Below, piece by piece: positions 10,757 to 39,024 of a stretch of 64,000 nucleotides of DNA. The first letter of the stretch is position 1. Every line of letters begins with the position of its first letter. The DNA is taken from contig JALSSW010000071.1 in NCBI GenBank assembly GCA_026984035.1, positions 230 to 64,229 on the forward strand, read 5' to 3'. A program made the translations under genes and the position numbers. The notes beneath the pieces were generated by a model. That model was not told where the DNA came from. It did no database searches and saw only the letters and a list, made by a program, of their open reading frames with translations. Source of the DNA: Planctomycetota bacterium. GTDB lineage: Bacteria > Planctomycetota > UBA1135 > GCA-002748355.

Positions 10757-10768
10757 ACCGAGAAGTGC

Positions 10769-11986: not shown

Positions 11987-12031
11987 TGTGCAAGTGTGGG
12001 CAAAGGGTCCAAAGCAGCGGGCTTTTCGGGC

Positions 12032-18606: not shown

Positions 18607-18699
18607 GCGAGATAGGATGACCTGGCTGTAAAACGCAGGCTACCTGGAAAAAAGAGGCTCTATTTCAACAAAGCAAGGGGCAAGGGGAAAGTAGGGAAG

Positions 18700-19260: not shown

Positions 19261-20328
19261 TTATAATTCCACAAGAACGCGACCCTTGACCCCATCTTTC
19301 TTTTTGAATTCAAGAGGGACGAAATCCCCCTTGCTGTGGTATCCAATAAGATCTTGCACGTGCATTCCATTGCGAGCCTTGATTCCATTCACAGCAAGAA
19401 GAATGTCCCCCTTGGAGAGGCCGGCTTGCCAAGCAGGGCTGTCCTTTAGAACCGAAAGGATGCGCCCCCCTGGGCCAAGAAACATAGGGTCCATTCGAAC
19501 CCCGAGAAAAGGGCGCTCAAAGATGCGTCCTTTTTTGAGTTCGGCCAATATCGGGGCAAGGTCATGCAAGGGGACCCCAAAACCAATGCCGGAGTCATAC
19601 CAATCCGCACCGGCCATATCCCCGTTTGGAGAAAGAGGGACCACAATCGCAAGGGCACGACCTTTGAGGTCCACCAAGGGCCCTCCATAGTTCGCGGGAG
19701 AAGTGTTCGCATCGCATTGGATGGCTTTGCCATGAATACGGCCTAATCCCGAGAGGATGCCTGCATGCACAGTAGGCAACTTGGGCCCAAAGCTGCGACC
19801 CAGGGCAAACACCCATTGACCGACACGCATCTTGTTACTCGGGACCATCTCCGGAACAGGGAGATCTTTGGCTGCGACCTTGAGAAGGGCGATTCCTCGA
19901 CCCTGGTCTTCCCCCATTTTTTTCGCGGTGAACTTACGACCATCGGCCAGGCTCACCAAAATCGTGGTTGGATGAAAATTAAGCACGAAACGAGTCGTCA
20001 GGATCCAACCTTCCCTTCCAACAATAATGCCAGTGCTTGTCCCTTGCGCCTGAAGAAACCCTGCCAGCTTCAATGGCCCCAAGCCTTTCTTCGGTTTCTT
20101 GGGTCGCCCGGGCCTCTGGCTTCCTCCCAGAGTTGATCGCCGCACACCTCCAAAGGTTTCTACCGTCACCACCCAGGGAGAAGATTGGGCGACAACCCGA
20201 GGGATGACCCTAGAAAGAGATCGGACTTCTTTGAGTGGATGGGATAAAAGGGGCGAGGGAGTTTGAGCGGGAACCCCAGTGGCAAAGACACAGAAAGATA
20301 AGCCGCGAAGGAGTTGGATGGTTTTCAT
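19261..20328 (-). CDS. HtrA/DegP-like trypsin-fold protein with PDZ domain, catalytic triad lost (pseudoprotease)
   Basis: 355 aa with a signal peptide. The fold strings are retained but the triad residues are replaced: GWILTTRFVL (no His), GRGIALLKV (no Asp), SPANYGGPLV (Tyr in place of Ser). PDZ: GGRILSVLKDSPAWQAGLSKGDILLAVNG. The ATG overlaps the upstream stop (ATGA, 20325..20328). Confidence 0.75.
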   Translation of the reverse strand: MKTIQLLRGLSFCVFATGVPAQTPSPLLSHPLKEVRSLSRVIPRVVAQSSPWVVTVETFGGVRRSTLGGSQRPGRPKKPKKGLGPLKLAGFLQAQGTSTGIIVGREGWILTTRFVLNFHPTTILVSLADGRKFTAKKMGEDQGRGIALLKVAAKDLPVPEMVPSNKMRVGQWVFALGRSFGPKLPTVHAGILSGLGRIHGKAIQCDANTSPANYGGPLVDLKGRALAIVVPLSPNGDMAGADWYDSGIGFGVPLHDLAPILAELKKGRIFERPFLGVRMDPMFLGPGGRILSVLKDSPAWQAGLSKGDILLAVNGIKARNGMHVQDLIGYHSKGDFVPLEFKKKDGVKGRVLVEL

Positions 20329-23264
20329 TTTTTCGCCTCCAAGACCAAGCTGACCTTAGTTACCCGCACACCCCGCTTAAGGGTCAAATCAATGCTCTCT
20401 CCTGGCCCAAAAGCCCGGAGAGCCCGGCGAAACTCTGCACAAGTCCGAACGGGATAGTCGTTCACCCGGACTATCATGTCATCAGGTCGGATCCCCGCCC
20501 TTTGCGCGGGCGAATCGGGGAAGACACGGTCTACATAGGCGGGAGGAGAGCGCCGGCGTCCCGTGTCAAAGAGCTTGATGCCTGTATAGACCGGCCCCTT
20601 AGCCTTGGCTTTGAGGGATTGGGCCGCGAGATTCTTTGCGAGACTCCGATCTCCCAGGCAGAGAGCAACAAAGGGGGCCAAGTTCTCGGCGGGGATCACA
20701 AGCGAAAGCTGCGTATTTGTCTCCCGCGACTCCACCAAAGGAGTCAGCATTCCCACAAGTTTTCCATCGAGAGTAAAAAGTCCTCCCCCCTGCGTCCCAG
20801 GGTTAGATGGGGCGTCCGTCAAGTAGACGCGACCTTTGTAAGGAAATTTGCGCAGATTCAGCCTGAGGTCTGAACGGATACTTCCCGAAATCACACCTTC
20901 AACAACGGTGACCCGTTCATCAAATTCCGCCAATTTGAAGGCGTTTCCCATAGACCAAACAACCGTTCCCGGAGGAAGGAATCGCTTTTTTCCGGGGATC
21001 GCAATCGGATGAAGATTCGATTTTCCGGGATCAATTTTGAGCATCGCGAGCCCTAATTCCTCAGCCCGACGATAGATCCTCGCCTCGTGGATGCTGCCGT
21101 CCGCGAGAACAACGCGCACTTGTCCCGGCTGCAGCATGATGTGATCCCAAGTGAGGATGAAACCCTTTTTTGAAACCACCAGGCCGGAACCATAGCCCTC
21201 GATACCTTTCAATCCGCTTGCCCCCACAATCTTTACCACTGCATCGAGCAAGGGAACCATGTGCTCTTCCATCGCGGTGCTGGGCCGAGGCAAAGGATCC
21301 TCACGGAGCTTGAACCCGGGAAAGCCTGAAGCTGCGGGATCGTCCCCAACGGCCTCCCAGGTCTCAACCAAAACCTTATCGATCCGTTTCTCCAAGCGAA
21401 CGGGATAGAGGAGGGAATCTTTTGCCCTCACCCACTTGTTGACAACAACTTCCACAAGTCCCCCATCTGCGGGGCTGCGATACCGACAGCCCACGGGAAT
21501 AAAGCGTTTCCCGTCGATATAAAGAGCCCTCTTGCCAGGTCCTCTTAGGGCCAAAACCCAAACAGGGGCCCCAGCAACATAGGCTCCACCCTCTACATAG
21601 AGATCCCCCGGAATACCCTCTGATCTGGACGGATCCAATAGGGGCAGGAGCAAACGTTCGCGTTGGAGGGTCACAAGTTCATCCCCCCTGTCCTTTTGCT
21701 TGGCGAGGGCTTCCGAATCAAGAGTCTTCCCCCGAAAGCTTCGTTGGATTCGCTTTCCATCCAAGATCCAAGAACGCTCAAAACGATCCTTTCTGGACGG
21801 AACATGAACCATGACGCGCACAATCCTCTTCCCCTTCTCCGCCACGAGATGGGGCTCAACCTTTCCCCGAAGCCAAGAGACAACCCCATCCATGTATTGG
21901 TAAAGACCTCGATCCCGTTCAAGCTCCTTCGTGCTGGGTCCAGTCTTCTTGACCTTCACCTTACCTCGATACTTCCTGGGGATCTTTCCACGCCAACCCT
22001 TTGGAAGAGCCTTCTTCCATCCTTTCGGAACTTTGAACCCTTTGGGAAGGAGTAAATCACTCAAAGCAAGGCGCCTATTTTTTTCGCGCTCTTCGCGCTC
22101 CTTGGCAGCCTTGAGAAGTTTTGAAAAATCCGGCTTCTTCGAAAAATCCGGAACATTCGGTCTTGGGTTTCGCTGGGATCCTGTAGGCAAGGCGGCCAGA
22201 GGGAAGCGGGCATGCCGAATCGGACCATAGTTTCGATGACCTTCACTGAACCTGCGGTAGCCAATGTCCACAACAAAGCCGGCAGGAAGTCGCCCTGTCC
22301 ATTTTCCGAGTTGATTCGCTGTCCGAACCTTACGGCCATTAAACGTCACAATCTCATCACCAAGCCGAATGCCATGCCTCCAGGCAACAGAGTCTTCGAA
22401 CAGCGCCTGCGCGAAGACTCCTCTTCGGCCTCCCATATTGGGATCCTCCATAGTCCATGCGCTCATGTCGGTGGTCCCATGCTCACAATGCTTCCCCGCA
22501 AGGAGATCCGGGAGAAAACCTTTGATCTGCTGAATACTCACGGCAAATCCTGCTCCCGTGTTCACCCTCCCGCGATCTCGAATCGTGATGCGCCCATTGA
22601 TCCCAACCAACAAGCCATTCTCGTCGAACAAAGGGCCCCCGGAATTCCCGGGGTTGATCGGGGCATCTACTTGGATGCAATCCGGATACATCAGCATCCT
22701 CCCGTTTGGCCCCGTTCCCTTTTGGAATCGGTGAATCCCTGAGACAATCCCAATGGTCACCGTCGGCTTGAAATCCGTTGCCAAAAGAAAAGGGTTTCCC
22801 ATCGCGTAGACAAAACCACCCAACTTGAGATGATCTGAGTTCCCCAACCGGGCGTGTGGCCACGTTCCATCAGGATTGGTTCCTTTACCCCGCAAGGCGA
22901 GCAAAGCGATATCCCCTCCCGGATCCACTCCGATCACATCGGCGATATAAAAATTGCCGTCCGGAAGGCCGATCTTCATGACCTTTGATTTTGTTGCGAC
23001 ATGGTAATTGGTCAGGATCCACCCCTTGGGTGAAATAATCACCCCAGAGCCTCCACCCGCTCGCTCTAAGGACATCACGGCGCAAACCGTGGGGGCCAAT
23101 CGTGCAACAAGTTCGGTGCGAGCTTTTTGCGCCAGAAGGGCATAGGTTAAAGCATCGGACTCCTCTCCCGATTCATTCCCAGCTTCCTGTTGGAGAGCAA
23201 AACATTCTCCCACAACTCCCAAAACTGAAACCAGGGAGAGAGCAAGAATTGACCCTATTTTCAT
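20325..23264 (-). CDS. Double HtrA-type protein: active trypsin-like serine protease + PDZ, linker, second degenerate protease domain + PDZ
   Basis: ORF 20325..23768. The start MKIGSILALSLVSVLG at 23264 overlaps the upstream stop (ATGA). Domain 1 has TNYHVA / GDIALLAL / GNSGGPLF. Domain 2 has TWDHIM / LGLAMLKI / GTQGGGLF. Two PDZ-like segments are present. Confidence 0.8.
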   Translation of the reverse strand: MKIGSILALSLVSVLGVVGECFALQQEAGNESGEESDALTYALLAQKARTELVARLAPTVCAVMSLERAGGGSGVIISPKGWILTNYHVATKSKVMKIGLPDGNFYIADVIGVDPGGDIALLALRGKGTNPDGTWPHARLGNSDHLKLGGFVYAMGNPFLLATDFKPTVTIGIVSGIHRFQKGTGPNGRMLMYPDCIQVDAPINPGNSGGPLFDENGLLVGINGRITIRDRGRVNTGAGFAVSIQQIKGFLPDLLAGKHCEHGTTDMSAWTMEDPNMGGRRGVFAQALFEDSVAWRHGIRLGDEIVTFNGRKVRTANQLGKWTGRLPAGFVVDIGYRRFSEGHRNYGPIRHARFPLAALPTGSQRNPRPNVPDFSKKPDFSKLLKAAKEREEREKNRRLALSDLLLPKGFKVPKGWKKALPKGWRGKIPRKYRGKVKVKKTGPSTKELERDRGLYQYMDGVVSWLRGKVEPHLVAEKGKRIVRVMVHVPSRKDRFERSWILDGKRIQRSFRGKTLDSEALAKQKDRGDELVTLQRERLLLPLLDPSRSEGIPGDLYVEGGAYVAGAPVWVLALRGPGKRALYIDGKRFIPVGCRYRSPADGGLVEVVVNKWVRAKDSLLYPVRLEKRIDKVLVETWEAVGDDPAASGFPGFKLREDPLPRPSTAMEEHMVPLLDAVVKIVGASGLKGIEGYGSGLVVSKKGFILTWDHIMLQPGQVRVVLADGSIHEARIYRRAEELGLAMLKIDPGKSNLHPIAIPGKKRFLPPGTVVWSMGNAFKLAEFDERVTVVEGVISGSIRSDLRLNLRKFPYKGRVYLTDAPSNPGTQGGGLFTLDGKLVGMLTPLVESRETNTQLSLVIPAENLAPFVALCLGDRSLAKNLAAQSLKAKAKGPVYTGIKLFDTGRRRSPPAYVDRVFPDSPAQRAGIRPDDMIVRVNDYPVRTCAEFRRALRAFGPGESIDLTLKRGVRVTKVSLVLEAKK

Positions 23265-24628
23265 TGTTCCAACACCCTCAAATCCCCAAGAATGACCGCA
23301 GCCCCCGAATCCAACATAAAGCTGCCCTGAAGTTCCAAAACCACTCTCTCGATGTTTTCCAGATTCAATTGGAGAGAAACTGCGGGAGCTCCCCCTTTTA
23401 GCTCCACTTCCTTCATCAGAGGTTTTCCATCTCCCAAAACTCGCAGCTTTACGAGACCTTTGCCCCGCGAAACAAGCCCAGCTTTGCCAAGAAGAATCCC
23501 ACGCTTTGCTGTCAGAGGAATTTCCATCCTCAAATTGGGAACCACCCAAAACCCATGTCTGAATTTTTCCCCTTCTAACTTCAAAGATCTTCCTGCGGGG
23601 GAGTGATCTTTGAGGACGGGCCACTTTCGATCGAGGGTGGGTGTGCGGGCGATCTGTAACCCCGGAATCCTTGAAACAAATTTGACCTGGGGGGATCCGA
23701 ACTCGATCTCCTGGATGAGTTCTTGATCCAAGCGAAGTCGAAAACCTTCCAAAGTTTGGAAAACCCAAGGCTTCGATAAATCCGAATTCGCTGAAAGGAG
23801 GCGCCCAATAAGGACGGTTCCATTTTGGAGCTTCGCTCGATCCATGGGAACATTTTCTGGCGCCACCGGCTCAACCCCCGAACCTTCCGCAAAAACAACC
23901 CCATAGACCTTTGTAAGAGGAAGGGATCTCTCTTTTCCTCCCACCTTGAGAAGCAGGGTCCCAAGCTTGCCCTTCCCAACTTTATCATTAATTGGGGTTC
24001 CCCCTAAAAGTTTGCAAGGGATACGACGGATGATCGGTTCACCATTAGAGCTTTTCCCCTTGGTATAAAAACACAAGTCGGACTCAAGAGGGGGCGCCTG
24101 CAAAGCTCGCGAAAAATTTGCATCCAAAACCCGATGCTTCGCTTCCTTGTTCTCCTCCTCAGAAGCTGTGACCTTGGGTTTCGCAACCGGTCCCCGAAAA
24201 CCCTGAATATAGGTCAAGGGAACCAGGATCTTATTTCCTCTATGAATTTGAAACTCAAGGCTTCCTTTTGTCCCTCCGAGACAAACACCATCGAGAATGG
24301 CTCCGCTTCGAAGTTTGAGGAATCCTCTTGCCGGAAGATTCTTGTTCGAAGGAGATACACTCAGGGCATCCTCCCCCTCATCAGATCCATCCATAATCCA
24401 GGCTTTCCCGGGCGCAAGCCTGATAGGATTGCCCCCTTCCACCCCCCTGAAGCCATCTTTGGCCGAAAAAACCCAATCCCTAAAAGTCCAAGTTTTCCCG
24501 GAAAAACTCTTGAGCCGAACGGTTCGTCCATCCCCCCTTATGCCCGGAACCGTACCAAAAGAAGGCCTTGCAGAAAGGCCAAGTAAACAGAAAAAAGGAG
24601 AAAGAAAAAAAAGACTTACCGCTTTCAC
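23261..24628 (-). CDS. Secreted protein with repeated small beta modules and NPCBM-like C-terminal domain
   Basis: The GTG start at 24628 overlaps the upstream TGA (GTGA). Signal peptide MKAVSLFFLSPFFCLLGLSA. The C-terminal ~130 aa (FRHGFWVVPNLRMEIPL...VKLRVLGDGKPL...VLELQGSF...AAVILGDLRVLE) resembles the NPCBM jelly-roll pattern. This is a by-eye call. Confidence 0.55.
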   Translation of the reverse strand: MKAVSLFFLSPFFCLLGLSARPSFGTVPGIRGDGRTVRLKSFSGKTWTFRDWVFSAKDGFRGVEGGNPIRLAPGKAWIMDGSDEGEDALSVSPSNKNLPARGFLKLRSGAILDGVCLGGTKGSLEFQIHRGNKILVPLTYIQGFRGPVAKPKVTASEEENKEAKHRVLDANFSRALQAPPLESDLCFYTKGKSSNGEPIIRRIPCKLLGGTPINDKVGKGKLGTLLLKVGGKERSLPLTKVYGVVFAEGSGVEPVAPENVPMDRAKLQNGTVLIGRLLSANSDLSKPWVFQTLEGFRLRLDQELIQEIEFGSPQVKFVSRIPGLQIARTPTLDRKWPVLKDHSPAGRSLKLEGEKFRHGFWVVPNLRMEIPLTAKRGILLGKAGLVSRGKGLVKLRVLGDGKPLMKEVELKGGAPAVSLQLNLENIERVVLELQGSFMLDSGAAVILGDLRVLEQ

Positions 24629-25680
24629 TTTCCCCCTCTATTCACTTTGCGATAGTAACGCTCGAGAACCGCGCGATAGCGTTCCGGAAGTTTGGTTTGT
24701 ACTTCGTTCATAATTTTTTTTCGGTCGCGATCTTTCATTTCTCCCCACTTACTCTTCACCCCACGAGAGCCATGGAGCTGACCGACGCGGCCGGGACCAT
24801 CACTTAGGGAAGATTGATTCGCAGGCCCCTTGGACTGCTGATTCCCCTTTGGTGGTCCACTTCCTTGCTGTTGTTCTTCTTTTTCAAGCTGCTCAATCAG
24901 CTTGGTAAGTTTATCAACAATATCGAGTTGCTTGGTCTCAACCTGCTTACCGGTTTGCTCTTTTCTCAGCTTGCGCTCGCAGTATTTCATGTCGTCGGCA
25001 ATCGCATGAAGGGGGCTGTCCCATTGAGCTTCAAGCTCGGCAAGAAGTTGGGCGGCATTGGCACGGTAACGTTCCGGAGCATCCGGGTACAAATCCAAAA
25101 AAGCCTTTAGATTGACGATAGCCTTCCCCGCATCGGGGATCAGGGCGAGGCTGTAACCGATATAGAAAGCCCCCTCCCCATCCATAAGGCTGTAACCGCT
25201 ATCCTTGGTAACAAAATCTGCAAGCACCAAAACGGCCCCTTCGGGGTCATCTTCGTCCAGCAGAGCCCGAGCAAGGAAATAACGGGAATGGGCCTTGATG
25301 TATGGATCCTTGGCTTTCAAAAGGAGTTTCGTAAGATCCAAAACTCCCTTCGGAGAACCTGCGTCCACCTCATTCATGGCTTTACGGTACGGAGGAATCA
25401 GTTTGCGGAGGACGCGATCGGTAATCCTGCTATCGGGACCAACCTTCCATTCTTTTTCAAATTCTTTGAGAAGAGTCTCGTCAGCCTTATGCGCCTTCAT
25501 CCATGTTAAGAAGGCATTTTTGTCAAACTTCTTCCGCTGAAGAACTGCCTGCTTTCCTTGGGCTTCAGGACCACCCTGCTTTTGGGAGAGACCCAGTGAG
25601 GGCAGCACAAGAAAAGTCGCCACCAAAAAAAGCCTCTTAGGATTCCAGGGGCGGATTGCTCTTTTAGGAAATGACCTCAT
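24625..25680 (-). CDS. Secreted TPR-like protein (BatC-like position) with conserved C-terminal tail
   Basis: 351 aa with a signal peptide (LFLVATFLVLPSLGLSQ) and a helical repeat region. It ends in WGEMKDRDRKKIMNEVQTKLPERYRAVLERYYRKV. The ATG overlaps the upstream stop (ATGA, 25677..25680). Confidence 0.6.
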   Translation of the reverse strand: MRSFPKRAIRPWNPKRLFLVATFLVLPSLGLSQKQGGPEAQGKQAVLQRKKFDKNAFLTWMKAHKADETLLKEFEKEWKVGPDSRITDRVLRKLIPPYRKAMNEVDAGSPKGVLDLTKLLLKAKDPYIKAHSRYFLARALLDEDDPEGAVLVLADFVTKDSGYSLMDGEGAFYIGYSLALIPDAGKAIVNLKAFLDLYPDAPERYRANAAQLLAELEAQWDSPLHAIADDMKYCERKLRKEQTGKQVETKQLDIVDKLTKLIEQLEKEEQQQGSGPPKGNQQSKGPANQSSLSDGPGRVGQLHGSRGVKSKWGEMKDRDRKKIMNEVQTKLPERYRAVLERYYRKVNRGGK

Positions 25681-27644: not shown

Positions 27645-27648
27645 CCGA

Positions 27649-29931: not shown

Positions 29932-30032
29932 TCGCCATTGGGGGGTTCATTGGGACCTTCTATCGGGGCCAAAGAATCCCCTTCTTGGGGCAAAACGCTT
30001 TTCAAAGGAGGCAAGGTCATCAATCAATATGG

Positions 30033-32552
30033 TTAAAGAAGGTCGAAACGCTTCCTCAGGATCCATTCCAAGGTCAAAAAGAAAACTACGAGCGCCAGCG
30101 AGAACCAGTTGTCCCAAAGAGGATAAGGAAAGGCATAAACGGATGTCCGAGACCGGGAGGGGATTGCTGCAACACGATCCACAAGGAGGTTCGGGGGTAA
30201 CAACTCTCCTCCGGCCTTTTTGGCCAAGCGTTGAAGCCCCGAACGATTCATCGGTCCACGGCTTTCGAGCCTCGACCGACGCACTTCAAAACGCACCGGC
30301 TTACCTCCTCCATCTCCCGACATCGCCGTGACGGTCCAAGTTCCGGTTCCGGTGGGCCGGAAGGATCCGCGATAGCGCCCTTCCCCTGAAGCCAGGGGTT
30401 TTAGCCGGAGATCAAAGGTCATTCCTTTGGGACCCTGCACCCGTACCGGAACATCCTCCGCGATCAAGGGTTCAAAATTTTCGTCCAGGGCCCGGAGGTA
30501 GATTTCAACCTCCTTCCCCAGGGTGACCTTCGTTAAAGAAAGCCCCAACTTGAAACGACCACTTCCTGCGGTCAGTCTCCCTTCGCTCAAATAGCGCAGC
30601 CCTTTGAGCCAATAACGGTTGAACGCCGATTCCATCACACCAAACCAACGATAGGTCTCATCTGTTCCTGTGTAGCTGACCCGACCGGCCCCCACATATT
30701 GAGTTGCAAGAATAGGACGACGCTGCCCTTCAGACATGAAGGCAGTGTTGGGATGGTCAATCAAAACAAAGGCGGCGGGCTTCTTCCGCAACACGGGGAA
30801 GGACCAGTGAAAACCTGGAAGGAGACTCCAAAGCCGCTCATTCGTTTCCGGAGAATCCACAAGTCTCAGGCTCCTGTGCCGTTTACCTTCTGTGGTCAGA
30901 GTCCATGGCCAAGCAACTCGAAAAAATCGGCCATAGCCGATCTCGCGTTCGGCCGACGGTAAATCGGGCACCACAGGCAAAAGATCCACCAGAGGTTTGA
31001 GGCTTGAATCAGGCTGAATCGCCGAGAGAGAAAACTTGTCTCCCATGACCCACCAAAGCCCTGTTCCCCGTTCGGTCACAGCCCGTTCTACCATCTGAGA
31101 AAACTCAAGCGGAATGAATCGAGGATCAGGATCGAGGAAAAGGACTACATCCCATTCATCCAATTCCTTTGGATCTTTGGGAAGGTTTTTGAGGCTCACA
31201 TTCCCTTCCTGAGGAAAACCTTTTTCTGCACTTTGGAGCCAGCACCCGACTTTGACAGTGTCATCGCGCATCAGCTGGGTCTTAATGAGGCGGTATTCGA
31301 AGGTGGGCGCACCTACGATCATCAGGACATCGAGAGTCGAAGTGAGGACTTGGATCCGGTGTGTAAATCGGTGGCGCTCTCCATCAAAGTCCTCTCCTTC
31401 GGGGGGGGTGATTTCGACTTCCAGAACATGCTCGCCTTCCTTCTCCAATTTGAAAGGAGGAAAGTTCACCGAAGTAGAAGGTTGATCTCCTCCAAGCTCC
31501 ACTCGTTTTGTGGCGATCGTCTTTTTTCCTCCAGCGAGTCGCTCCAAAAGACGCACTTCGATTTGCTGAAAGGGGTAGCCCTGAGACTGGACTTGGACGG
31601 AAAGACTCACGGGGTCTCCCCTAAACACCTTGTCCGGGGCCTGAAGATCCCGAAGTCCAACAACCCAGGCTTCCCGGGGGTCACCGACACCCACCACATA
31701 GACCCGATCGATGTCCTTTCGGGCCAAAATCGCCCCGGCCTCCTCGGCCCGACCACCTAAATTCACCCGGCCATCAGTCACAAGAATGACCCCTGCAATC
31801 CTGGCCGAACGAACGGAATCCAGAGCTTGCCTCAACGACCCTGTCAGGTTCGTTCCACCCTCCGTGGGTTTCAGCCGATCCCAATCAATGTCGGGAGCAC
31901 CGGGAAGCCCACCCAAAGTGGAGGAGCCCACAGGATTTTTCTCACGGCCTCCCCTTGGGGGGCTGGCCTCTCCCCTCTTGACCTTAGAAGAGCTCCCTTT
32001 TTCCTCGCTTGCTTTGCGCTTTTTCTCCGGAGCAGGCCTGGAGCTTTCTCCAAAAAGACGGAGTCGGACAAGGTTTTTCTTAGCAAGGGTTTGGAGAATT
32101 CCCTTGTCTTTAAGGAGGCGGACCGAGAGACCAAAACGGGTCATGGTCGATGGATCTTCAACCCCCAAGTCCTTCCAAGCCTGTGCCTCTTCTTTCGAGT
32201 GGGCATAACTGTCCAAGTGCCCCATTGATTGCGATGCATCCAGAAGAACGAGCACTTCGCCGGGACGCACAGATTTGCGCACCTTTACCAAAGTCGGCTC
32301 AAGAAGAAGGAGCCCAATGGATGCCAAGGCCATCAAGCGCAGGAACGCCAACAAAGAACGCTTCCCAACGGAGAGACGCTTTGCGTCCTTTTTGTAGAGA
32401 TACACGACAAGGAGAAGGATCGCGACTGTCGCTGCAATGGAGAGGAGTGCAAGCGTACCCGAAGGAAGAGAAGTAAACTCAAAGCGCAGCTTCTCCCCTG
32501 CCTGTCCTTCTCCAGGACCCAGCCCGGCCAACCATTTCAGAAACTGTTCCAT
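30033..32552 (-). CDS. Membrane-anchored vWA domain protein (BatB-like) with C-terminal TM anchor
   Basis: 839 aa with N-terminal TM segments. vWA MIDAS-like string VLVLLDASQSMGH, then GGTNL and VILVTDGR. Large beta-rich region. C-terminal TM segment WFSLALVVFFLTLEWILRKRF. Confidence 0.7.
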   Translation of the reverse strand: MEQFLKWLAGLGPGEGQAGEKLRFEFTSLPSGTLALLSIAATVAILLLVVYLYKKDAKRLSVGKRSLLAFLRLMALASIGLLLLEPTLVKVRKSVRPGEVLVLLDASQSMGHLDSYAHSKEEAQAWKDLGVEDPSTMTRFGLSVRLLKDKGILQTLAKKNLVRLRLFGESSRPAPEKKRKASEEKGSSSKVKRGEASPPRGGREKNPVGSSTLGGLPGAPDIDWDRLKPTEGGTNLTGSLRQALDSVRSARIAGVILVTDGRVNLGGRAEEAGAILARKDIDRVYVVGVGDPREAWVVGLRDLQAPDKVFRGDPVSLSVQVQSQGYPFQQIEVRLLERLAGGKKTIATKRVELGGDQPSTSVNFPPFKLEKEGEHVLEVEITPPEGEDFDGERHRFTHRIQVLTSTLDVLMIVGAPTFEYRLIKTQLMRDDTVKVGCWLQSAEKGFPQEGNVSLKNLPKDPKELDEWDVVLFLDPDPRFIPLEFSQMVERAVTERGTGLWWVMGDKFSLSAIQPDSSLKPLVDLLPVVPDLPSAEREIGYGRFFRVAWPWTLTTEGKRHRSLRLVDSPETNERLWSLLPGFHWSFPVLRKKPAAFVLIDHPNTAFMSEGQRRPILATQYVGAGRVSYTGTDETYRWFGVMESAFNRYWLKGLRYLSEGRLTAGSGRFKLGLSLTKVTLGKEVEIYLRALDENFEPLIAEDVPVRVQGPKGMTFDLRLKPLASGEGRYRGSFRPTGTGTWTVTAMSGDGGGKPVRFEVRRSRLESRGPMNRSGLQRLAKKAGGELLPPNLLVDRVAAIPSRSRTSVYAFPYPLWDNWFSLALVVFFLTLEWILRKRFDLL

Positions 32553-32648
32553 CGAATCGCTTGCTTCCTTGTGTCAGTGCCTTTTCTGTCGTTATTCAGC
32601 CCAAGCACGGCAGTCGACTTGTTTTGTCAGTGGTCCTTAAGTAACCCT

Positions 32649-34901
32649 TTAGTGGTGTCCAAAACGCCAAGCCAAAAAACTCTCTAAAACTAAAAAACCC
32701 AAAAGCGCAAAGGCCAAAACTCGCCAGAATTCTCCCTCATCCACGAGAAAACCAGCCTTCACAGCAGAAGCCTCATCCACCCAGACCGCCCTCTCGGCCA
32801 TCTCAGAAGGCAAGCCTGCTAAAAATGCCTTTTTTGGGACCGTCTCCAAACGCCCCTCTTCTGTCCAAGGAGAGACTGAAAAAAAACGTTTTGCCTCCCC
32901 CATTCCTACCCGGTCAAGTTTCAGGACCCAGGCCCCTGCCTTCGGCCATGGCCGGCCCTCCTCAGGCCCGATTAAAGCCTTGAGATCATCTGGATTCTCC
33001 TTATCAGGTTGAGCGAGAAGACTCCGCTCAAGGCTCAGGCCGCTTTCATCTCCTTCCATAGGGAGAATGCGCAAGGCTGGACGATAATCCGCCGCCGACA
33101 ATGTGAGCGACCACTGTCCTCGGGGACCCAGGTTGTAAGGGCTCAAGTCCATCGGTTTCAACATTTGCTCTGCGAGGCGGGTCAGGAGAACGGGATATGA
33201 AAAATCTCCGGGCCAACTGGTCCAAGAAGCATCGGCCGTGGTCGTCATCATCCCCACAGAACCGTTGCCGAATTTTTTCTCCAGGAGAAGGGGAGGGCCA
33301 TTCTCATCCCCCAAACGTAGAAGGACTTTGGTTCCCTCTCCCAGAATCTCGGAACCTTTAGAATCACGTTCAATCTCGTGATATCTCCCCACAGACACAA
33401 GGGAAAGGAGCTTGGAAAGAACCTCGTTCATCCCCTGGAACAAAGGATGCTCCACTTGGGTAATGACAGGAGAAAGGGGTTTGGCCATATCTCCGTCCAC
33501 TTGATCGAGGGGAGCCGGAAGTAGGCCCTTGCCATCCTTCCAAAGAAGGGACTTGTATGAATTCACCGAGACTTGATCACCGGTGAAAACCAAAAGTCCC
33601 CCTCCCGCTCTCACCCAAGCTTCCAACCTTTGAACTTCTTTTTCGGGAAGTCGCCCCATATTGGCCAGGACAATCAGATCAAAGGAACCCAGCTTCTTCT
33701 GTGGAAAATCGTATTCATCCGTGTGCGTTACAGAAAAACCCGAAGCACCATCCTCTCCAGGGTCCAGAGCAGACCCCAAATAAAAGGTCTCCGAAAGCTC
33801 TATTCGCTCACCCGGATCTCCATCCACAAGAAGAATTTGCGCAGCATCTTGGACTTCAACCGCCAGAGCCTTTTTGTTATCCAAAGCCAGACGATCCAGC
33901 GGAAGATCAGCCTGAATTACATGAAAGCCCGGCGAGGCAAAATCAACGCTGAAGACCAAGGACTTGGAGCTATTTGGGGGAATAGGATCCATCTTCCGTG
34001 TCACGCGTGCACCGCCATCCACCTGAAATCCAAGGGGAAACCTGGCGCTCACATCCTTAGAAAAATTGAAGACTTCTACTTCAAAACGAGAGGGGATCTT
34101 TTGAATCGAACGGGCTTGTAAGGGCTTGATCCTGGTGATCCCGAGATTCGCTTGCCCAGAATGTGTCGCTGGAAAGAAAAACAACTTCCCCGTCCCTCCT
34201 CGAAGACCACGGAGACCTTTAAGAAGGGGTTGCTTGATACGCCCATCGGCTCCCATCAAGTCACTTCGTCTAAAATCCGAGACGAGATAAATAGAAAGGC
34301 GAGAGGCCTTTTCCCCAAGAGCATTGTCAATGCGTCGAATCCCTTCAAACAAAAGGGTGGGCTCAAAGCGATCAGGAGTCGGACGTGCAGCAGCGAGAGC
34401 TTCGTTCAGCTCTCCCCGGAGGGTTATCGTCACAGGCCGAGCCGAAAGATCAGCTTTGCTGGAAGAACTCCTCCACAAGGTCAAAAAATCTCCTCCTCGC
34501 GTCTTTCCGATCTGATCGGCGATCTCAAGGACCTTTTTTCGAGCCGCGTCAAACACAATCCCCACTCCGGATCGCTCACCAAGACTCCCCGAATCATCGA
34601 GGATAATGACATGGTGCACCGAACGCTGCCCCAAGCCCAAGAGGTCCTCCGAGGAGGCCATTGGACGTGCAAGCAAAAAAGCTAAAAGAGCGACAACTCC
34701 CATCCGAAGGAGCAGGAGAAGTAATTGCTCAAAGCGCATCCTCCTCCTCGTCTCTTTTTCGGCCCGGAGCAAAAACTCGATCGCCGCCCAACGAATCCTC
34801 TTGAAGCGTCGCTTATTGAGAATGTGGATGATCAAAGGGACCGAAGCAAGACCTGCTCCCCAGAGGAGAAAAGGGTTCAATAAGGAAAAAGCAAGGATCA
34901 T
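32649..34901 (-). CDS. BatA-type protein: N-terminal double-transmembrane domain (TIGR02226-like) + vWA domain + C-terminal TM
   Basis: ORF 32649..34934. The preferred start is MILAFSLLNPFLLWGAGLASVPLIIHILNKRRFKRIRW at 34901, which is the BatA N-terminal signature. vWA string HHVIILDDSGSLG. C-terminal TM FWRVLAFALLGFLVLESFLAWRF. Confidence 0.75.
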   Translation of the reverse strand: MILAFSLLNPFLLWGAGLASVPLIIHILNKRRFKRIRWAAIEFLLRAEKETRRRMRFEQLLLLLLRMGVVALLAFLLARPMASSEDLLGLGQRSVHHVIILDDSGSLGERSGVGIVFDAARKKVLEIADQIGKTRGGDFLTLWRSSSSKADLSARPVTITLRGELNEALAAARPTPDRFEPTLLFEGIRRIDNALGEKASRLSIYLVSDFRRSDLMGADGRIKQPLLKGLRGLRGGTGKLFFFPATHSGQANLGITRIKPLQARSIQKIPSRFEVEVFNFSKDVSARFPLGFQVDGGARVTRKMDPIPPNSSKSLVFSVDFASPGFHVIQADLPLDRLALDNKKALAVEVQDAAQILLVDGDPGERIELSETFYLGSALDPGEDGASGFSVTHTDEYDFPQKKLGSFDLIVLANMGRLPEKEVQRLEAWVRAGGGLLVFTGDQVSVNSYKSLLWKDGKGLLPAPLDQVDGDMAKPLSPVITQVEHPLFQGMNEVLSKLLSLVSVGRYHEIERDSKGSEILGEGTKVLLRLGDENGPPLLLEKKFGNGSVGMMTTTADASWTSWPGDFSYPVLLTRLAEQMLKPMDLSPYNLGPRGQWSLTLSAADYRPALRILPMEGDESGLSLERSLLAQPDKENPDDLKALIGPEEGRPWPKAGAWVLKLDRVGMGEAKRFFSVSPWTEEGRLETVPKKAFLAGLPSEMAERAVWVDEASAVKAGFLVDEGEFWRVLAFALLGFLVLESFLAWRFGHH

Positions 34902-34952
34902 GCGAGGCAACTCCTGGAGGTGCAGAGTTCGCAAAGAGTCATGAAATCGGGG

Positions 34953-36038
34953 TCAGCGCTGAAGAATAGGGAGGCGGGCATAAGGAAGGTTGAGGATAAT
35001 GAGTGCAATCGCAGTTCCATAGGTCCGCCCCACTCCATCTCCTTGCCAATAGCCCTTAGAACTCTGCTGCTTCATCATATATGCCGCGATTTCCTTGTAA
35101 TATCGGTCCCAATCCCTCCCCCCTTCTTGGTAGAGGGCCTCCGCAAAATAAAGCTGGGCATAGAAATGAAACCCTCCACTTCGAGTCGGTGAGATATGAC
35201 TTTTTGCATATTGCATGGCTTTTTTGGCCATCTTGTCATCGTACTTACCTGCGTTGTAAAGAACGGCACAAGCAGCGGCCGTTATCGCAGGCCGCGAGGG
35301 TCCACGAAACCGAGCCCCATATCGAATCCCACCGTCTTCATTGGCTGAATCCGCGATGTATTTGACTGCGTTTCGAATCACCTTTTTGGGCACATTGATC
35401 CCCGCGTTCCGACAAGCCCGCAAACCCTGCACCTGAGTAACAGTAACCGAACCTTCGTCATAGTTATCTCCAGGAGCATAGTTCCAGCCCCCATAGGAGG
35501 ATTGACTTTTGGCCGTGAGGCGGATGGCTTTATCCAAAACCCTTCTCAGCCGGCGCTGCATCTTGAGATCCACTTCCATCCCATAGACTTCACCCAAAAA
35601 AAGCATGGCGAAGCCATGCCCATACATGGGACGCTCTTCCTCTTGAAGAATGCTGATGAGACCGCTCTTTAGGGAATGGCGCATCAAAAATTCCGCAGCC
35701 TTCCGAATGTTTGGAGCATAGGGTCCCCGCATGGGGGTGGAGCCGGTAGCCATAAGGGCAAAGCCGGCGAGGGAAGTCATCGCAATGGGATAACCATTGG
35801 AAGAACCATTGGCCCGCCATGATCCATCCCTGTTTTGTGTCCGGACAAGATACTTGGCCCCTTTTTGAATCGTGCTTTCAATCCGAGCATTGACCCCTCT
35901 AGGGTAGAGCTTCCCATTTTTTGGGAGCTTGATTCCATCAAGTTCTTGCGCTCGCAACCCAAGGGAAAGCCCAAGAGTTGATGCAAAAAAGATTCCAAAC
36001 TTCGGAAGCAATAATTTGGACCACCCCATTGCCTTCAT
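34953..36038 (-). CDS. Secreted prenyltransferase/squalene-oxidase-repeat (alpha-alpha toroid) protein
   Basis: 361 aa with a signal peptide. Repeated QW-like units: TQNRDGSWR, SQSSYGGWNY, ANEDGGIRY, QQSSKGYWQG. The ATG overlaps the upstream stop (ATGA, 36035..36038). Confidence 0.75.
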   Translation of the reverse strand: MKAMGWSKLLLPKFGIFFASTLGLSLGLRAQELDGIKLPKNGKLYPRGVNARIESTIQKGAKYLVRTQNRDGSWRANGSSNGYPIAMTSLAGFALMATGSTPMRGPYAPNIRKAAEFLMRHSLKSGLISILQEEERPMYGHGFAMLFLGEVYGMEVDLKMQRRLRRVLDKAIRLTAKSQSSYGGWNYAPGDNYDEGSVTVTQVQGLRACRNAGINVPKKVIRNAVKYIADSANEDGGIRYGARFRGPSRPAITAAACAVLYNAGKYDDKMAKKAMQYAKSHISPTRSGGFHFYAQLYFAEALYQEGGRDWDRYYKEIAAYMMKQQSSKGYWQGDGVGRTYGTAIALIILNLPYARLPILQR

Positions 36039-38791
36039 TTCGATTCCTTTTTCTTTCCACCCGCCCCGTGGGTTTCCAACTGAACCGAGGGAAGGGAACC
36101 CAGGATCTCTAAGAGCTGGCGAACTTCATTGGAACGCCCGGCCCTTTCCAGTATTTCAATGCGAGCCAACAGCAAATCGGGATTACCTTTATGCCCAAAC
36201 TTATGCAAAAGAGCATCTGTGCGTTTCAGTTGTAACAACGCAGGTTCCGTTTCACCTTTTTTGGAGAGATCCAAAGCCATCTCCCTGCCGATCCGACGAC
36301 AAAAGTCCAAGACTGCTTCTCTGGAATCAGAGGAAAGCTGCCCCGACAGCAAAGTCTTCATTCCCAGATCGAAGGCTTCTCTTTTTTTCTCCAGGAGGAG
36401 GAGCCTGCGCATCTCCTCCATCACAGAAGGAGATGATGCAAGGAAATCTTCGGGAACGGCATAGACAATGACCCCAGCTTCGTCGGAGACAAAGAGGAGG
36501 CCATTTTTTCCTTTCAAACTAATGGGCGCAGTCCTTTCCTCTCCACCCTTCTCCAGAGGGGGGAGTTGGTAGCTCCCCAGTTGAACCCCAGTGCGCCCAT
36601 CAAAAACCTGAATCCCATTGTCCATGGGCAAAAACACCTGCCCTCCCAAGGCGAGGCCTCTTCCGAAAAGTGGATCACTTAGAGTGGATTCAAAAAGACG
36701 CTTCCCTGTGCGGATATCAACTCCTTGGATTGCAGTCCCAACGAGAAAAATGCGCCCATCATCCGGCCCCAACACCTGGTGGAAACTTTCGCTCCTCGTT
36801 CCTCTCTCATAGCGAGGGAGTTGCCACTCGACCTTGCCGGAGAAGCGATTCAGGCAAAGGAGGACATCCGAATCAACGGGAGCGACAATGAGGTTGTCCC
36901 CGGAGATCAAGGGAAGAGAGGGGAAAAACTTTCGCAGACGGATCTTTTGAACCCCGTAGAAGGTCCGCCTTGCCCGAACCGTAGCCTTAGGTTTGGGCTG
37001 CACAGGATCCCAGGTTTCATAACGCCGAAACCATAGGAGTTCGAGATTAGGGGCTCGAAATGCCGCGACCCCACCGCTGTTGGTTAGAAAATAGAGAATA
37101 TTGCCCTGCGCCACCAGTGGGACTGGGGGAGGCAGGAGGAGTTCACTACCTCCACTATGGACGGGAACAATCGAAAGAAGCTCACCGTCCTTTGGATCAA
37201 TTTTCGCGACAGAAAACTCTCGATCCACTTGGACCGGCGCAAAGAGCCAGTCTCCAAGGGAAATCGGCGGGGCCAAGAAAAAAACTCTCCTGCCCCCCTT
37301 CAGCTTGGGTCGTAGATTCCAAAGTTCTTTTCCTTTTGATGCGTCATAGCAAATCAGGGAATTGCGATATTGCATCCCCCCGACCCCTCCCTGCCCCAGA
37401 GGAACGCGGTAGCTTCCCAGAAAATAGAAAAAGGATCCATGGGGAGTCACCCTCGAGGTCACCCTCTGCTGGGCAAAGTCCTTTGCAGGGTTTCGATATG
37501 CAAGGGTCTGTTGCCGCAACCGGCTCACAGGCCGAAAAAACGAACTTTTTTTCCCAGATTCCGGATCCTTGGGCCAAACAAATACAAGCTTTCCTGTCTC
37601 TTCATCCAAGCCCACAAGCCGCATGTGATCCTTGATGAGCAAAACGTTTCGCCCATGAACCCTTGCAAAGCTAAGAGGGAGACCTGCCCGAAAGCTTTTG
37701 TTATCAGGGACCTTGGTCCCCCCAGATCCCGAGAAAAAAACAGTCCCCCCTCTTCGATTCCCCTTGACCTTACCCAAGCCATACGGATCCTGCACCAGGC
37801 AACGGAACTCCCAGAGAGGAACAAAATCGAAGGCAGAGAACCCAGCATCCACATCTTTTCGTCTCTCCTCCAAACGACCCCGGAGGGCAAAGGCTTCGTG
37901 CTCCCCCAGCTTCGTCAGGGGGACCAGCTCTCCATGAACCCTTACCGAACCTCCAGGATCCATGTGAACGAGAGCCTTAAGGTGCCGACCCCAGCCATCT
38001 TCATTTCCCAAAAGAGCGGCAAGATGGGCCTGCCGCACATGGATCATGATTTGAACATTACGGCTTGGATCCGGGTAATTCTCGAGGATCCTTTCTCGAA
38101 CCAGATATGCCTCTCCCAAACGCCCCTCGGCTTCAAACAGATCCGCCAGCAACATTCCGACCCTAGCTCCATAGCTGCTCGGAAGGTAGAGCTCAAAAAG
38201 CCGCTGGAGTTCTCCTTCATCCAAGGATTCCGCTGCATTGAGGTAGCGGTCCTTCACCTTTGGATCCACCAGCAAACGAAAGGCTTCTAAGCCTTCTTTG
38301 GGAAGGGAAGCCAAAAGTTTCTGGCAAAACCGAGCCAAAGGAAAAAAAAGCCGGTTGTCCTCGCTGTAAAACACCTTAAAGGGATCGCTCTTGCCAAAGC
38401 GTTCATCCTCCCCTAAGGCTTTTCCTTCCATTACCTTCTGGAGATCCCCAATGCCTTCATCCCATTTCTTTTTGGCAAAGAATTCCATGGCCTTGTCAAG
38501 GACCCGGTTGAGGTCATTATTTTCCGGAACGGTCAGACTTCCCCCCTCATCTTCTTTCTTCGAGCCCTGCTGCAGGACCCTCCCTCCTTTCCCCAATATC
38601 ACCTGCCCTTGGGCCTTTGGAGAAGACTGCAACGGGGGAAAAAGGGGGAAACCGAGCAAGAGACCGAGGAAAAACAAAATTCGAGAGATTCTCCCTCGGC
38701 AAAAAACGAAAGAGTGAAGGGCCATCCAGAAAGTTGTTGGAGATTTTCGCATCAAGTTTGGAGAGGAGGTCCATCCCCTCGAAGATTCCAC
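36035..38791 (-). CDS. Secreted TPR-like / PQQ-type beta-propeller / TPR-like protein
   Basis: 918-aa ORF. The start is uncertain (38791, 38752 or 38725), with a hydrophobic leader ILFFLGLLLGFPLFPP. The central region has PQQ/BamB-like blades (GKELWNL, LELLWFRRY, GKVEWQL, FLVGTAIQGVDIRTGKRLF, LGGQVFLPMDNGIQVFDGRTG). Confidence 0.65.
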   Translation of the reverse strand: MESSRGWTSSPNLMRKSPTTFWMALHSFVFCRGRISRILFFLGLLLGFPLFPPLQSSPKAQGQVILGKGGRVLQQGSKKEDEGGSLTVPENNDLNRVLDKAMEFFAKKKWDEGIGDLQKVMEGKALGEDERFGKSDPFKVFYSEDNRLFFPLARFCQKLLASLPKEGLEAFRLLVDPKVKDRYLNAAESLDEGELQRLFELYLPSSYGARVGMLLADLFEAEGRLGEAYLVRERILENYPDPSRNVQIMIHVRQAHLAALLGNEDGWGRHLKALVHMDPGGSVRVHGELVPLTKLGEHEAFALRGRLEERRKDVDAGFSAFDFVPLWEFRCLVQDPYGLGKVKGNRRGGTVFFSGSGGTKVPDNKSFRAGLPLSFARVHGRNVLLIKDHMRLVGLDEETGKLVFVWPKDPESGKKSSFFRPVSRLRQQTLAYRNPAKDFAQQRVTSRVTPHGSFFYFLGSYRVPLGQGGVGGMQYRNSLICYDASKGKELWNLRPKLKGGRRVFFLAPPISLGDWLFAPVQVDREFSVAKIDPKDGELLSIVPVHSGGSELLLPPPVPLVAQGNILYFLTNSGGVAAFRAPNLELLWFRRYETWDPVQPKPKATVRARRTFYGVQKIRLRKFFPSLPLISGDNLIVAPVDSDVLLCLNRFSGKVEWQLPRYERGTRSESFHQVLGPDDGRIFLVGTAIQGVDIRTGKRLFESTLSDPLFGRGLALGGQVFLPMDNGIQVFDGRTGVQLGSYQLPPLEKGGEERTAPISLKGKNGLLFVSDEAGVIVYAVPEDFLASSPSVMEEMRRLLLLEKKREAFDLGMKTLLSGQLSSDSREAVLDFCRRIGREMALDLSKKGETEPALLQLKRTDALLHKFGHKGNPDLLLARIEILERAGRSNEVRQLLEILGSLPSVQLETHGAGGKKKESK

Positions 38792-39024
38792 TCTGAAACT
38801 CCCCGAGAAACCCCAGGGGAGTCATCCCAAGGAGTCAAGTATCTCAAAGAAAGCTTCAAGGATCTGAGGATTCCCCCCCAAGATGGAGATTCAACAGCTC
38901 CAATCCCGCCGGAAGGCTTCCTCGAAAAGTCCGTTATTGTAAGGTATAGGACCCCATTCCTTGCGAAGCTCCTCCAGGAAATCTTTCCCCGGCTTTCGGA
39001 AAAGCCAACAGAAACCAAACGAAA

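Follow-up and report, generated by a model that had tools for sequence, protein, structure and literature searches.

Locus layout

We analysed a 64-kb stretch of DNA from a Planctomycetota bacterium (contig JALSSW010000071.1; the whole stretch is called the window below), which carries a block of ten genes linked to a BatA-type protein. On the minus strand, from 38791 down to 19261, ten co-directional open reading frames (ORFs), named g1 to g10 in the order of transcription, follow one another with no opposing gene inside (Table 1), as the original prediction stated and the ORF list bears out. Both flanks of the block are occupied by plus-strand genes, a divergent one upstream (g0) and a convergent one downstream.

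Overlaps or 4-nucleotide (nt) junctions account for six of the nine boundaries in the block. Read on the coding strand, four are ATGA start/stop overlaps (36035-38, 25677-80, 23261-64 and 20325-28) and one is a GTGA overlap (24625-28). At the g5/g6 junction, the end of g5, ...GGAGAGGTGA, is followed by TCGG and then by the ATG at 27644, a 4-nt gap. All six lie at the positions originally claimed. The g6 start at ATG 27644 is supported because orthologues align from residue 1 of that start, and a Shine-Dalgarno-like GGAGAGG is found upstream of it.

Three larger gaps had also been described. The g2/g3 gap measures 51 nt with the g3 ATG at 34901 and 18 nt with a TTG start; the ATG is favoured because the match to the BatA hidden Markov model (HMM) starts there and AGGAG lies 9 nt upstream. 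The g3/g4 gap is 96 nt. The third gap, g4/g5, is 101 nt with a TTG start and becomes 128 nt with an ATG, from which g5 is the 751-amino-acid (aa) protein of record (P0001). For g1, the likely true start is ATG 38752, inside the ORF that ends at 38791. A sigma-70 promoter and terminator consensus scan of the window gave a chance-level count with no site in the gaps and is silent on internal promoters; no Rfam family was matched anywhere in the window. As read from the sequence, the ten genes form one tightly packed, co-directional block with the packing of an operon.

Table 1. Genes and intergenic features at the locus, in window coordinates.
Feature	Position	Strand	Description	Main evidence
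g1	36035..38791	-	TPR-like N-terminal half and PQQ/BamB-like beta-propeller, N-terminal signal/anchor	PQQ_2 3.2e-13
g2	34953..36038	-	Secreted single alpha/alpha-toroid with squalene-cyclase-type repeats, 361 aa	SQHop_cyclase_C 3.9e-11, SQHop_cyclase_N 4e-07
g3	32649..34901	-	BatA-type protein	PF07584 BatA 1.6e-17, TIGR02226 8e-20
g4	30033..32552	-	Second anchor protein	Metal-ion-dependent adhesion site (MIDAS), PDB profile and AlphaFold2 (AF2) model
g5	27649..29904	-	Predicted N-terminal part of split DUF4175-type protein	AF2 model and profile searches
g6	25677..27644	-	Secreted K/E-rich long helical protein	Composition and P0035 alignment
g7	24625..25680	-	Secreted protein, weak TPR signal	TPR_14 E 0.029 (sub-threshold)
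g8	23261..24628	-	Secreted protein with C-terminal NPCBM (putative glycan-binding)	NPCBM 3.7e-11
g9	20325..23264	-	Active HtrA + PDZ fused to dead HtrA + PDZ	Trypsin_2 9e-48 in two stretches, TIGR02037 2e-94
g10	19261..20328	-	Dead HtrA + PDZ	Trypsin_2 3.8e-22
g0	39025..41658	+	Secreted 877-aa arylsulfotransferase (ASST)-like beta-propeller	Pfam Arylsulfotran_2 1e-08
g0/g1 divergent intergenic region	38792..39024	.	Presumed promoter region
PduO-type cobalamin adenosyltransferase gene	18700-19230	+	Convergent with g10

Domain content of the ten products

Pfam and NCBIfam HMM scans of the ten products agreed with the by-eye domain calls for PQQ_2, SQHop_cyclase, BatA/TIGR02226, NPCBM and Trypsin_2 with PDZ. 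The TPR repeats proposed for g1 and g7 gave sub-threshold signals only (TPR_14 at 8e-4 in g1), and g4, g5, g6 and g7 have no significant Pfam family. BatD (PF13584) and SH3 had no Pfam match in any of the ten proteins, and no secretion-system, sortase-like, pilus or outer-membrane-anchor gene was detected in the block by Pfam or NCBIfam. A crude hydropathy scan found a hydrophobic N-terminal segment in all ten products, in line with the earlier statement that each carries a signal peptide or a transmembrane (TM) anchor.

Conservation of the gene order

We used g5 as the anchor of a locus survey because a 10-kb flank on each side spans the whole block. The close g5 family consists of proteins from Planctomycetota metagenome-assembled genomes (MAGs). 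A genome scan with an alignment of 11 close g5 sequences, taking one genome per species, yielded 34 loci, nearly all titled Planctomycetota and all from MAGs. With the window proteins as tblastn queries, g2 to g8 were recovered in order in about 17 further species-level loci, and g1 too where the contig reaches. The order persists down to 31–34% g5 identity, and g1-g2 stand adjacent to g3 in about 16 loci at g1 identities of 24–36%. Such synteny across many species-level genomes places the arrangement far beyond chance, and the gene order predicted from one genome is thus conserved outside it.

Gene calls at two divergent loci (L001 and L002; g5 32–34% identical) show the same plan: a divergent ASST-like gene, then PQQ/TPR, toroid, BatA, an 808–830-aa protein, g5, proteins of 583–646 and 327–337 aa, NPCBM and three HtrA genes. 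Neighbouring genes there overlap by 4 nt or stand no more than 96 nt apart; g4 and g5 overlap by 4 nt, and gaps of 47–59 nt precede the first HtrA gene (HtrA-A). Across the orthologous loci, junctions are equal to or tighter than those of the window. At least nine loci (L001, L002, L006-L010, L021 and L027) have an ASST-like gene or g0 homologue upstream in the opposite orientation; g0 is a conserved neighbour of the operon, and therefore the conserved neighbourhood has eleven genes, not ten.

A variant arrangement was found at L004, where BatA, a 1867-aa PQQ protein, vWA, g5, g6-like, g7-like and NPCBM genes follow one another; HtrA lies 4 kb away behind unrelated genes, and the upstream end of this locus was not recovered. 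In-frame stops or split matches occur in the g2 orthologue of L008 (~4348-5246) and the g6 orthologue of L001 (~13956-13981), and could be pseudogenes, frameshifts or MAG assembly errors.

The vWA anchor proteins g3 and g4

Protein g3 scores 64 bits against PF07584 (cut-off 25.9) and 70.9 bits against TIGR02226 (cut-off 23.05). Its predicted architecture comprises a double-TM hairpin with a conserved basic cytoplasmic loop, a periplasmic vWA domain, an Ig-like domain, a GATase1-like domain and a C-terminal TM segment; the hydropathy scan gives three TM-like segments. In an alignment of 18 orthologues, the basic BatA loop holds the invariant residues H26, N29, R31, W38, A39 and A40. Protein g4 is predicted to have two N-terminal TM segments, a vWA domain, an Ig-like domain, an alpha/beta (GATase1-like) domain, a second Ig-like domain and a C-terminal TM segment.

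The vWA domains that had been assigned to g3 and g4 by eye receive no Pfam call in the window proteins, although Pfam VWA matches are obtained in their orthologues, and distant g4 homologues carry PF00092, PF05762 or PF07090. The assignment draws further support from MIDAS motifs. In g3 the motif is DDSGS (34584-34598), with D102 and S106 invariant and S104 nearly invariant in the 18 orthologues; in g4 it is DASQS (32226-32240), with D105 and S109 invariant, S107 nearly invariant and D260-G261 invariant across 29 orthologues. A downstream Asp is also invariant in both alignments. Profile comparison with the PDB gave matches that are weak but mutually consistent: BatB 3ibs, 4rck and 4jdu and GATase1-like 2gk3 for g3, which also has a weak ThuA/DUF4350 (GATase1-like) signal in Pfam, and BatB-type vWA, CARDB-like Ig, GATase1-like and filamin/alpha-2-macroglobulin (A2M) Ig domains for g4; 3soz and 3rht were further GATase1-like matches of the two profiles. 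The AF2 model of g4 (predicted local distance difference test, pLDDT, 80) has two N-terminal TM helices and a Rossmann-like beta-alpha-beta domain at residues 86–290 with a disordered insert at 180–213, followed by two beta-sandwiches with a large alpha/beta domain between them and, at the C-terminus, by a further TM helix. We conclude that g3 and g4 keep predicted vWA domains with MIDAS motifs.

The BatA-vWA protein BB0173 of Borrelia has been mapped as an inner-membrane protein with three TM helices and its vWA domain in the periplasm (PMC5700661), a topology that agrees with the hydropathy-predicted pattern of g3 and g4.

Two observations concern the core around these genes. Two separate g3-g4-g5 loci (L017 and L018) come from one MAG, xHP1_bin.172, and paralogous cores can thus coexist in a genome or bin. 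At L040 (9336-15000), three genes with overlapping junctions encode a DUF4159 (GATase1-like) protein that stands alone, a DUF4175-like protein of 1092 aa and a TPR protein of 574 aa, and no BatA, MoxR or DUF58 gene is nearby; the GATase1-like module fused into g3 and g4 in the window is a separate gene there.

A DUF4175-type protein predicted to be split over g5, g6 and g7

The AF2 model of g5 (pLDDT 86) contains three TM helices with a helical insert between TM2 and TM3, about four beta-sandwiches (residues 200–545) and a four-helix C-terminal bundle. Where g5 had been described as a TM-hairpin protein with a large outside domain, the model thus has a third TM helix, and the Ig-like sandwiches are predicted to lie outside. 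Conservation in the g5 family peaks at residues 98–122, in the TM2-TM3 insert, where DDELALAVE...QRFISALQF (29539-29613) is the most conserved 20-residue window and is present in MoxR-linked homologues too. By the positive-inside rule the insert is predicted to be cytoplasmic; TM1 and TM3 are preceded on their N-terminal side by basic clusters, RSKVRKG and KAIRRERLRRE. Foldseek searches with the g5 model returned generic Ig arrays only.

In a search of 1.84 billion proteins, a profile of 27 g5 relatives matched 21,467 representative clusters with an E-value cut-off of 1e-3 and 7,128 with one of 1e-30. It matches P0189, a protein annotated with PF13779 (DUF4175), at 3e-38. The g5 orthologue of L035 itself scores 35.5 bits against PF13779 (cut-off 27.3) and P0034 scores 37 bits, whereas g5 of the window has no PF13779 match even at E 10. 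Because relatives match and the window protein does not, g5 belongs to DUF4175 at superfamily level only, by transitivity.

The next two genes appear to continue the same plan. The coiled coil proposed for g6 stands as a K/E-rich long helical protein (K+E = 25%), for which Pfam has no family. The 1234-aa protein P0035 aligns to g5 over 81–690 and to g6 over 847–1216 (E 7.7e-07), so g6 is the putative counterpart of the middle or C-terminal part of fused DUF4175-type proteins. Protein g7 ends in a conserved module, KLPERYRAVLERYYRKV (24643-24693), whose KLPxRYRKxLExYYKKL block is conserved in 20 orthologues; an ending of the form [VL]Pxx[YW]...Y[YF]RxL stands at the C-terminus of P0034, P0189, P0191 and the 1012-aa protein of L035. 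Fused forms of the g5-g6-g7 plan are found elsewhere (P0035, P0034 and the L035 1012-aa protein). By these alignments, g5, g6 and g7 together are the counterpart of one DUF4175-type protein, split over three genes.

The likeness to DUF4175 (PF13779) proteins thus covers the N-terminal TM hairpin, the Ig-like region, the long helical or low-complexity region and the shared C-terminal ending. These proteins are single polypeptides, whereas here the plan is divided among three genes and the terminal motif sits on a separate protein with a weak TPR signal. We know of no DUF4175 protein with an assigned molecular function. AdvA of Acinetobacter, a cell-division protein, was set aside as a functional guide, its DUF4175 annotation lying upstream of two TM helices. 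In a JGI contig, a 1232-aa fused g5-g6-type protein (P0188) adjoins split bacterial A2M genes (MG2/A2M and TED/A2M_recep); this is probably a coincidence, noted since the g5 Ig array resembles macroglobulin arrays.

Secreted propellers, toroid and NPCBM protein

The toroid protein g2 is the most conserved member of the cluster, at 51–63% identity where g5 has 32–36%. It has a signal-like N-terminal segment and weak PDB matches to cyclase C-domains. Class II terpene cyclases are cytoplasmic or membrane-associated two-domain (beta-gamma) toroids of ~630 aa with a DxDD motif. A motif search of g2 found neither DxDD nor CxEQ, and its scores fall far under the TIGR01507 and TIGR01787 cut-offs of NCBIfam. 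A squalene-hopene (class II terpene) cyclase was therefore rejected, g2 being a secreted single toroid of 361 aa without DxDD, and so was an A2M/thioester domain, for which the CxEQ motif is absent. Tandem duplicates of g2 occur in some orthologous loci (L002 2966-5168; L030 3066-5126).

At the other extreme, g1 and g8 are the least conserved members (22–29%). Orthologues of g1 stand at the equivalent position with 24–71% identity (tblastn), and those of g8 are 22–56% identical; the N-terminal part of g8 is fast-evolving and had no fold assigned. For neither g1 nor g8 were sequence relatives found in the PDB.

Kelch propellers were met next to several copies of the cluster. A secreted Kelch-propeller gene (window 17071-18606, minus strand) lies just past the operon behind the PduO gene, the PduO-Kelch pair also follows the cluster in L007 (21364-22203), and in L026 (8635-13176) two Kelch-propeller genes stand between g8 and the HtrA genes. 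These positions hint that Kelch propellers may be loosely linked to the cluster.

One intact and two degenerate HtrA domains

The original prediction described g9 as a double HtrA and g10 as a dead one. Alignment with orthologues leaves the second claim in place and overturns the first if both g9 domains are taken as active, the second domain being dead like g10. In domain A (the N-terminal domain of g9), the triad is intact, with His in TNYHVA (22995-23012), Asp in GDIALL (22899-22916) and Ser in GNSGGP (22632-22649); across 17 of 17 orthologues the Asp is kept in all, the His in most, and the Ser motif is GNSGGP. Domain B (the C-terminal domain of g9) has GTQGGG (20781-20798) at the Ser position and LGLAML (21039-21056) at the Asp position; in 14 of 14 orthologues the Asp is Gly and the Ser is Gln, His, Tyr or Phe, while the His is kept in some. 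Domain C, in g10, has lost all three residues (Ser to Tyr in ANYGGP at 19678-19695, His to Phe in TTRFVL, Asp to Gly in RGIALL), and the same three replacements are found in 13 of 13 orthologues, in which the flanking motifs [AV]NYGG[PA] and RG[IVL][AT]L[LV] stay conserved. PDZ domains (PDZ_6, PDZ_2, PDZ) were matched in g9, in two stretches, and in g10. By its residues, the set thus consists of a single HtrA domain that is catalytically intact and of two pseudoproteases of long standing, all three with a PDZ domain.

HtrA-A and HtrA-B are separate genes in L001 and L002 (545–589 aa and 352 aa) and are fused into g9 in the window, L006-L009 and L011. Together with the g5-g6 fusion in P0035, the A-B fusion in the window lineage supports a functional linkage. 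HtrA proteases are built from trimers, and the live-to-dead ratio of 1:2 together with the fusion suggests a mixed trimer in which a single site is active. Partnership between an active and a dead HtrA has a precedent in MamE and MamO (PMC4794232). As in that pair, an intact HtrA is encoded here beside degenerate but conserved HtrA-like proteins, with weak NCBIfam similarity to the magnetosome proteins. This similarity is generic to HtrA and far under the family cut-offs, and there are no magnetosome genes here; the present set also differs in having two dead partners (1:2, as in the trimeric HtrA unit), one of them fused to the active domain.

The HtrA set is not a fixed part of the combination, as had been supposed. 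Among 18 loci with at least 4.4 kb beyond g8, it follows g8 in 13 and is absent in five (L019, L021, L022, L024 and L032), where opposite-strand or unrelated genes come after g8. The set is, on this distribution, accessory and not obligatory.

Relation to MoxR-DUF58-BatA operons

No MoxR (AAA_3) or DUF58 gene was detected when Pfam was run on some forty large ORFs of the window or when its full length was searched by tblastn with two MoxR proteins and DUF58 proteins from related loci, in agreement with the earlier report of their absence from the 64 kb. The next 10 kb past its right end likewise lack both. Nor did tblastn find either within the 10-kb flanks of any g1-g8-type locus.

In distant relatives the core is placed differently. 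At L035, L036 (Tepidisphaerales) and L038 (Verrucomicrobiales), homologues of g3-g4-g5 lie directly downstream of MoxR and DUF58 (Pfam AAA_3 7.5e-63 and 6e-61, and DUF58 3e-36 and 2e-48, at L035 and L038, respectively; L036 by tblastn). In these MoxR-linked loci the g3 homologue matches VWA_2 (2.4e-12), the g4 homologue VWA and the g5 homologue DUF4175. Because the core follows MoxR and DUF58 there, we consider that the cluster derives from the MoxR-DUF58-BatA-vWA-DUF4175 operon class. Downstream at L035 come the 1012-aa protein, which is of low complexity, then a toroid protein and one with two NPCBM stretches, so that toroid and NPCBM are not peculiar to the MoxR-less form; a propeller partner occurs in the further variant L004. 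Two proteins of L035 carry additional putative glycan-binding modules: the g5 homologue (9923-12178) has a PA14 domain (1e-10), and the 728-aa protein at 16553-18739 has its two NPCBM stretches.

The ten-gene combination had been put forward as undescribed. We found no paper describing it, and to that extent the claim holds; its core, however, is homologous to the MoxR/DUF58-linked module and is not an unrelated new machine. Bat-class operons (Bacteroides fragilis Bat, Borrelia bb0170-bb0176, Leptospira bat and Rhizobium leguminosarum RL3499-RL3502) share with g3 the BatA double-TM segment, the MIDAS vWA domain and the C-terminal TM segment, and they too continue with a second membrane protein of vWA type and a TPR-like protein. 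They differ in several respects: MoxR and DUF58 were not found in the window or within 10 kb of the orthologous loci; g3 and g4 have ~750–840 aa with Ig and GATase1-like domains, against ~330 aa for BatA, BatB and BB0173; no match to BatD was obtained, and BatC/BatE-type TPR-SH3 proteins were not encountered, g7 having its sub-threshold TPR_14 signal; and a toroid, a PQQ propeller, an NPCBM protein and an HtrA trio are added here. We class the block as a lineage-specific variant of an operon type that is known but functionally obscure.

Interpretation and alternatives

We consider it moderately probable that the block is one operon encoding an inner-membrane-anchored, periplasm-facing assembly, an elaboration, specific to Planctomycetota, of the widespread MoxR-DUF58-BatA/vWA-DUF4175 envelope module. 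In such an assembly, g3 and g4 would be held in the inner membrane at both ends and would present MIDAS metal-dependent binding sites in the periplasm, through which partner proteins could be captured. The three-helix anchor of g5, with secreted helical g6 and g7, may form a long stalk that reaches out to the wall or outer membrane. Secreted g2 (the toroid), g1 and nearby g0 (the propellers) and g8 (the NPCBM protein) would be partners or ligand/glycan binders captured on this scaffold, and the active HtrA, in a mixed oligomer with the two pseudoproteases, might process the assembly or control its quality. A cytoplasmic partner is likely to make contact through the conserved cytoplasmic loops of g3 and g5; it would be MoxR/DUF58 in the ancestral arrangement and here may be encoded elsewhere or dispensed with. 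By analogy with the RL3499 MoxR operon, which is needed for membrane integrity and cell morphology (PMC3893208), the physiological role is likely to be envelope integrity or organisation.

Several points weigh against this reading. We infer the physical interactions, the geometry of the stalk and the mixed oligomer of HtrA domains, and every example of the cluster is a MAG. Topology was taken from the crude hydropathy scan and the positive-inside rule. Pfam makes no vWA call in g3 or g4 of the window, where the E-values of the PDB profile matches reach only 4e-4 to 0.03, and the whole-chain fold search of the g4 and g5 models against the PDB gave generic multi-domain matches only (Ig-array or multi-domain glycosidase matches in Foldseek, TM-scores 0.1–0.2), with no functional lead. 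The HtrA set, missing in five of 18 loci, may therefore be a neighbouring unit and not an integral part. To our knowledge, molecular function is undefined even for the canonical Bat and MoxR operons. The Bat (aerotolerance) name itself may mislead; the abstract of the Leptospira study says that no specific function was demonstrated (PMC3557215).

It is possible, if doubtful, that the block consists of two or three adjacent units, namely a Bat/DUF4175 core (g3-g7, perhaps with g8), an unrelated secreted g1-g2 pair and a general periplasmic quality-control HtrA set that would have no more than a transcript or a neighbourhood in common with the rest. The five loci without HtrA after g8, the Kelch genes that separate g8 from HtrA in L026, the gaps before HtrA-A in L001 and L002, the different order and remote HtrA of L004, and the toroid of L035, which is downstream and not upstream, all fit such a patchwork. 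Yet g1-g2 remain beside g3 in about 16 loci even at low g1 identity, g8 and g9 are joined by an ATGA overlap in the window, and PQQ-propeller, toroid and NPCBM genes stay with the core even in rearranged distant variants; two conserved dead proteases further argue for a dedicated rather than a housekeeping role.

A stronger version of the single-operon assembly is unlikely in our estimation: a self-contained, ATPase-independent machine, specific to Planctomycetota, that spans or organises the periplasm. In it, a DUF4175 stalk of three proteins and two double-anchored MIDAS vWA proteins would make up a fixed structure, possibly the base of a visible envelope feature, on which the toroid, the propellers and the glycan binder are captured; its maturation would be the task of an obligate HtrA heterotrimer in which one protomer is live, giving a single active site, and the other two are dead.

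We regard as distinctly unlikely a cell-surface adhesion or fibre/holdfast apparatus, adhesion being among the roles originally offered for the cluster; its proteins with vWA, Ig-like, NPCBM and coiled-coil regions would reach the surface and there bind glycans or proteins from outside. Such modules (vWA/MIDAS, tandem Ig-like, NPCBM) are typical of adhesins, g5 fold matches include the SiiE adhesin and S-layer proteins, and g8 and g1 evolve fastest, as expected of ligand-contacting parts; moreover BB0172, a Borrelia vWA paralogue, is reported as an outer-membrane integrin binder (PMC5700661). However, TM segments at both ends of g3 and g4 and the three of g5 are predicted to fix these proteins in the cytoplasmic membrane, the homologous core is tied to cytoplasmic MoxR/DUF58 in relatives, and the block has none of the export, sortase-like, pilus or outer-membrane-anchor genes sought.

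A periplasmic A2M-like protease trap (with the toroid in the place of a thioester domain and the Ig arrays in that of macroglobulin domains, next to proteases) or a conflict/defence system, including a MoxR-vWA ternary system minus its ATPase, is very improbable. The g5 fold search lists complement C3/C5 macroglobulin arrays, the g4 profile weakly matches an A2M MG domain, P0188 adjoins split A2M genes and MoxR-vWA systems with trypsin-like effectors are described in planctomycetes (PMC7159879), but g2 lacks the CxEQ thioester motif, the C3 matches are generic Ig arrays at a TM-score of ~0.12, and neither the MoxR-vWA pair nor the variable-effector third component is present here. Ternary systems do resemble the cluster in having vWA domains, sometimes with beta-propellers and trypsin-like peptidases, in planctomycetes; their basis is a chaperone pair of MoxR and vWA, joined by a third component (VMAP, iSTAND, FtsH or propeller) that carries variable effector domains (Kaur, Burroughs, Iyer and Aravind 2020, PMC7159879), whereas here the products appear extracytoplasmic or membrane-anchored, with no MoxR and no variable effectors. 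PADLOC gave no meaningful match (a coiled-coil artefact, LmuB at 6e-4, and a generic trypsin-domain match), and the defence-system reading was rejected.

Significance

Operons of the MoxR-DUF58-BatA/vWA class and DUF4175 proteins both abound: more than 21,000 clusters at 50% identity make up the g5 family by itself. Both have been genetically linked to envelope integrity, stress tolerance and virulence in several bacteria. In the Planctomycetota variant the periplasmic module stands apart from the ATPase pair, and the DUF4175 protein is divided into its functional pieces. The variant also names candidate partners (the toroid, the propellers and the NPCBM protein) and a dedicated HtrA set of one live and two dead domains, which yields testable hypotheses on binding partners for the whole class. 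It is, in addition, a clear case of pseudoproteases that are conserved alongside an active protease.

Other features of the window

Elsewhere in the window, large ORFs without a Pfam family (E<=1e-3; 368–918 aa) are found at 1158-3914, 10769-11986 and 15801-16907 on the minus strand and at 3841-5703 and 6464-8566 on the plus strand. The exact sequence of the 918-aa ORF at 1158-3914 is not on record, and this ORF is no paralogue of g1 (no tblastn cross-match). Nearly all 2-kb bins have a negative GC skew, which adds up to -3.1 across the 64 kb and shows no turning point, and the window therefore holds no signal of a replication origin or terminus. A LemA-domain protein (46361-47554, plus strand) has an unusually long N-terminal extension; its domain begins at residue 262 of 397, so its upstream region or start codon is uncertain.

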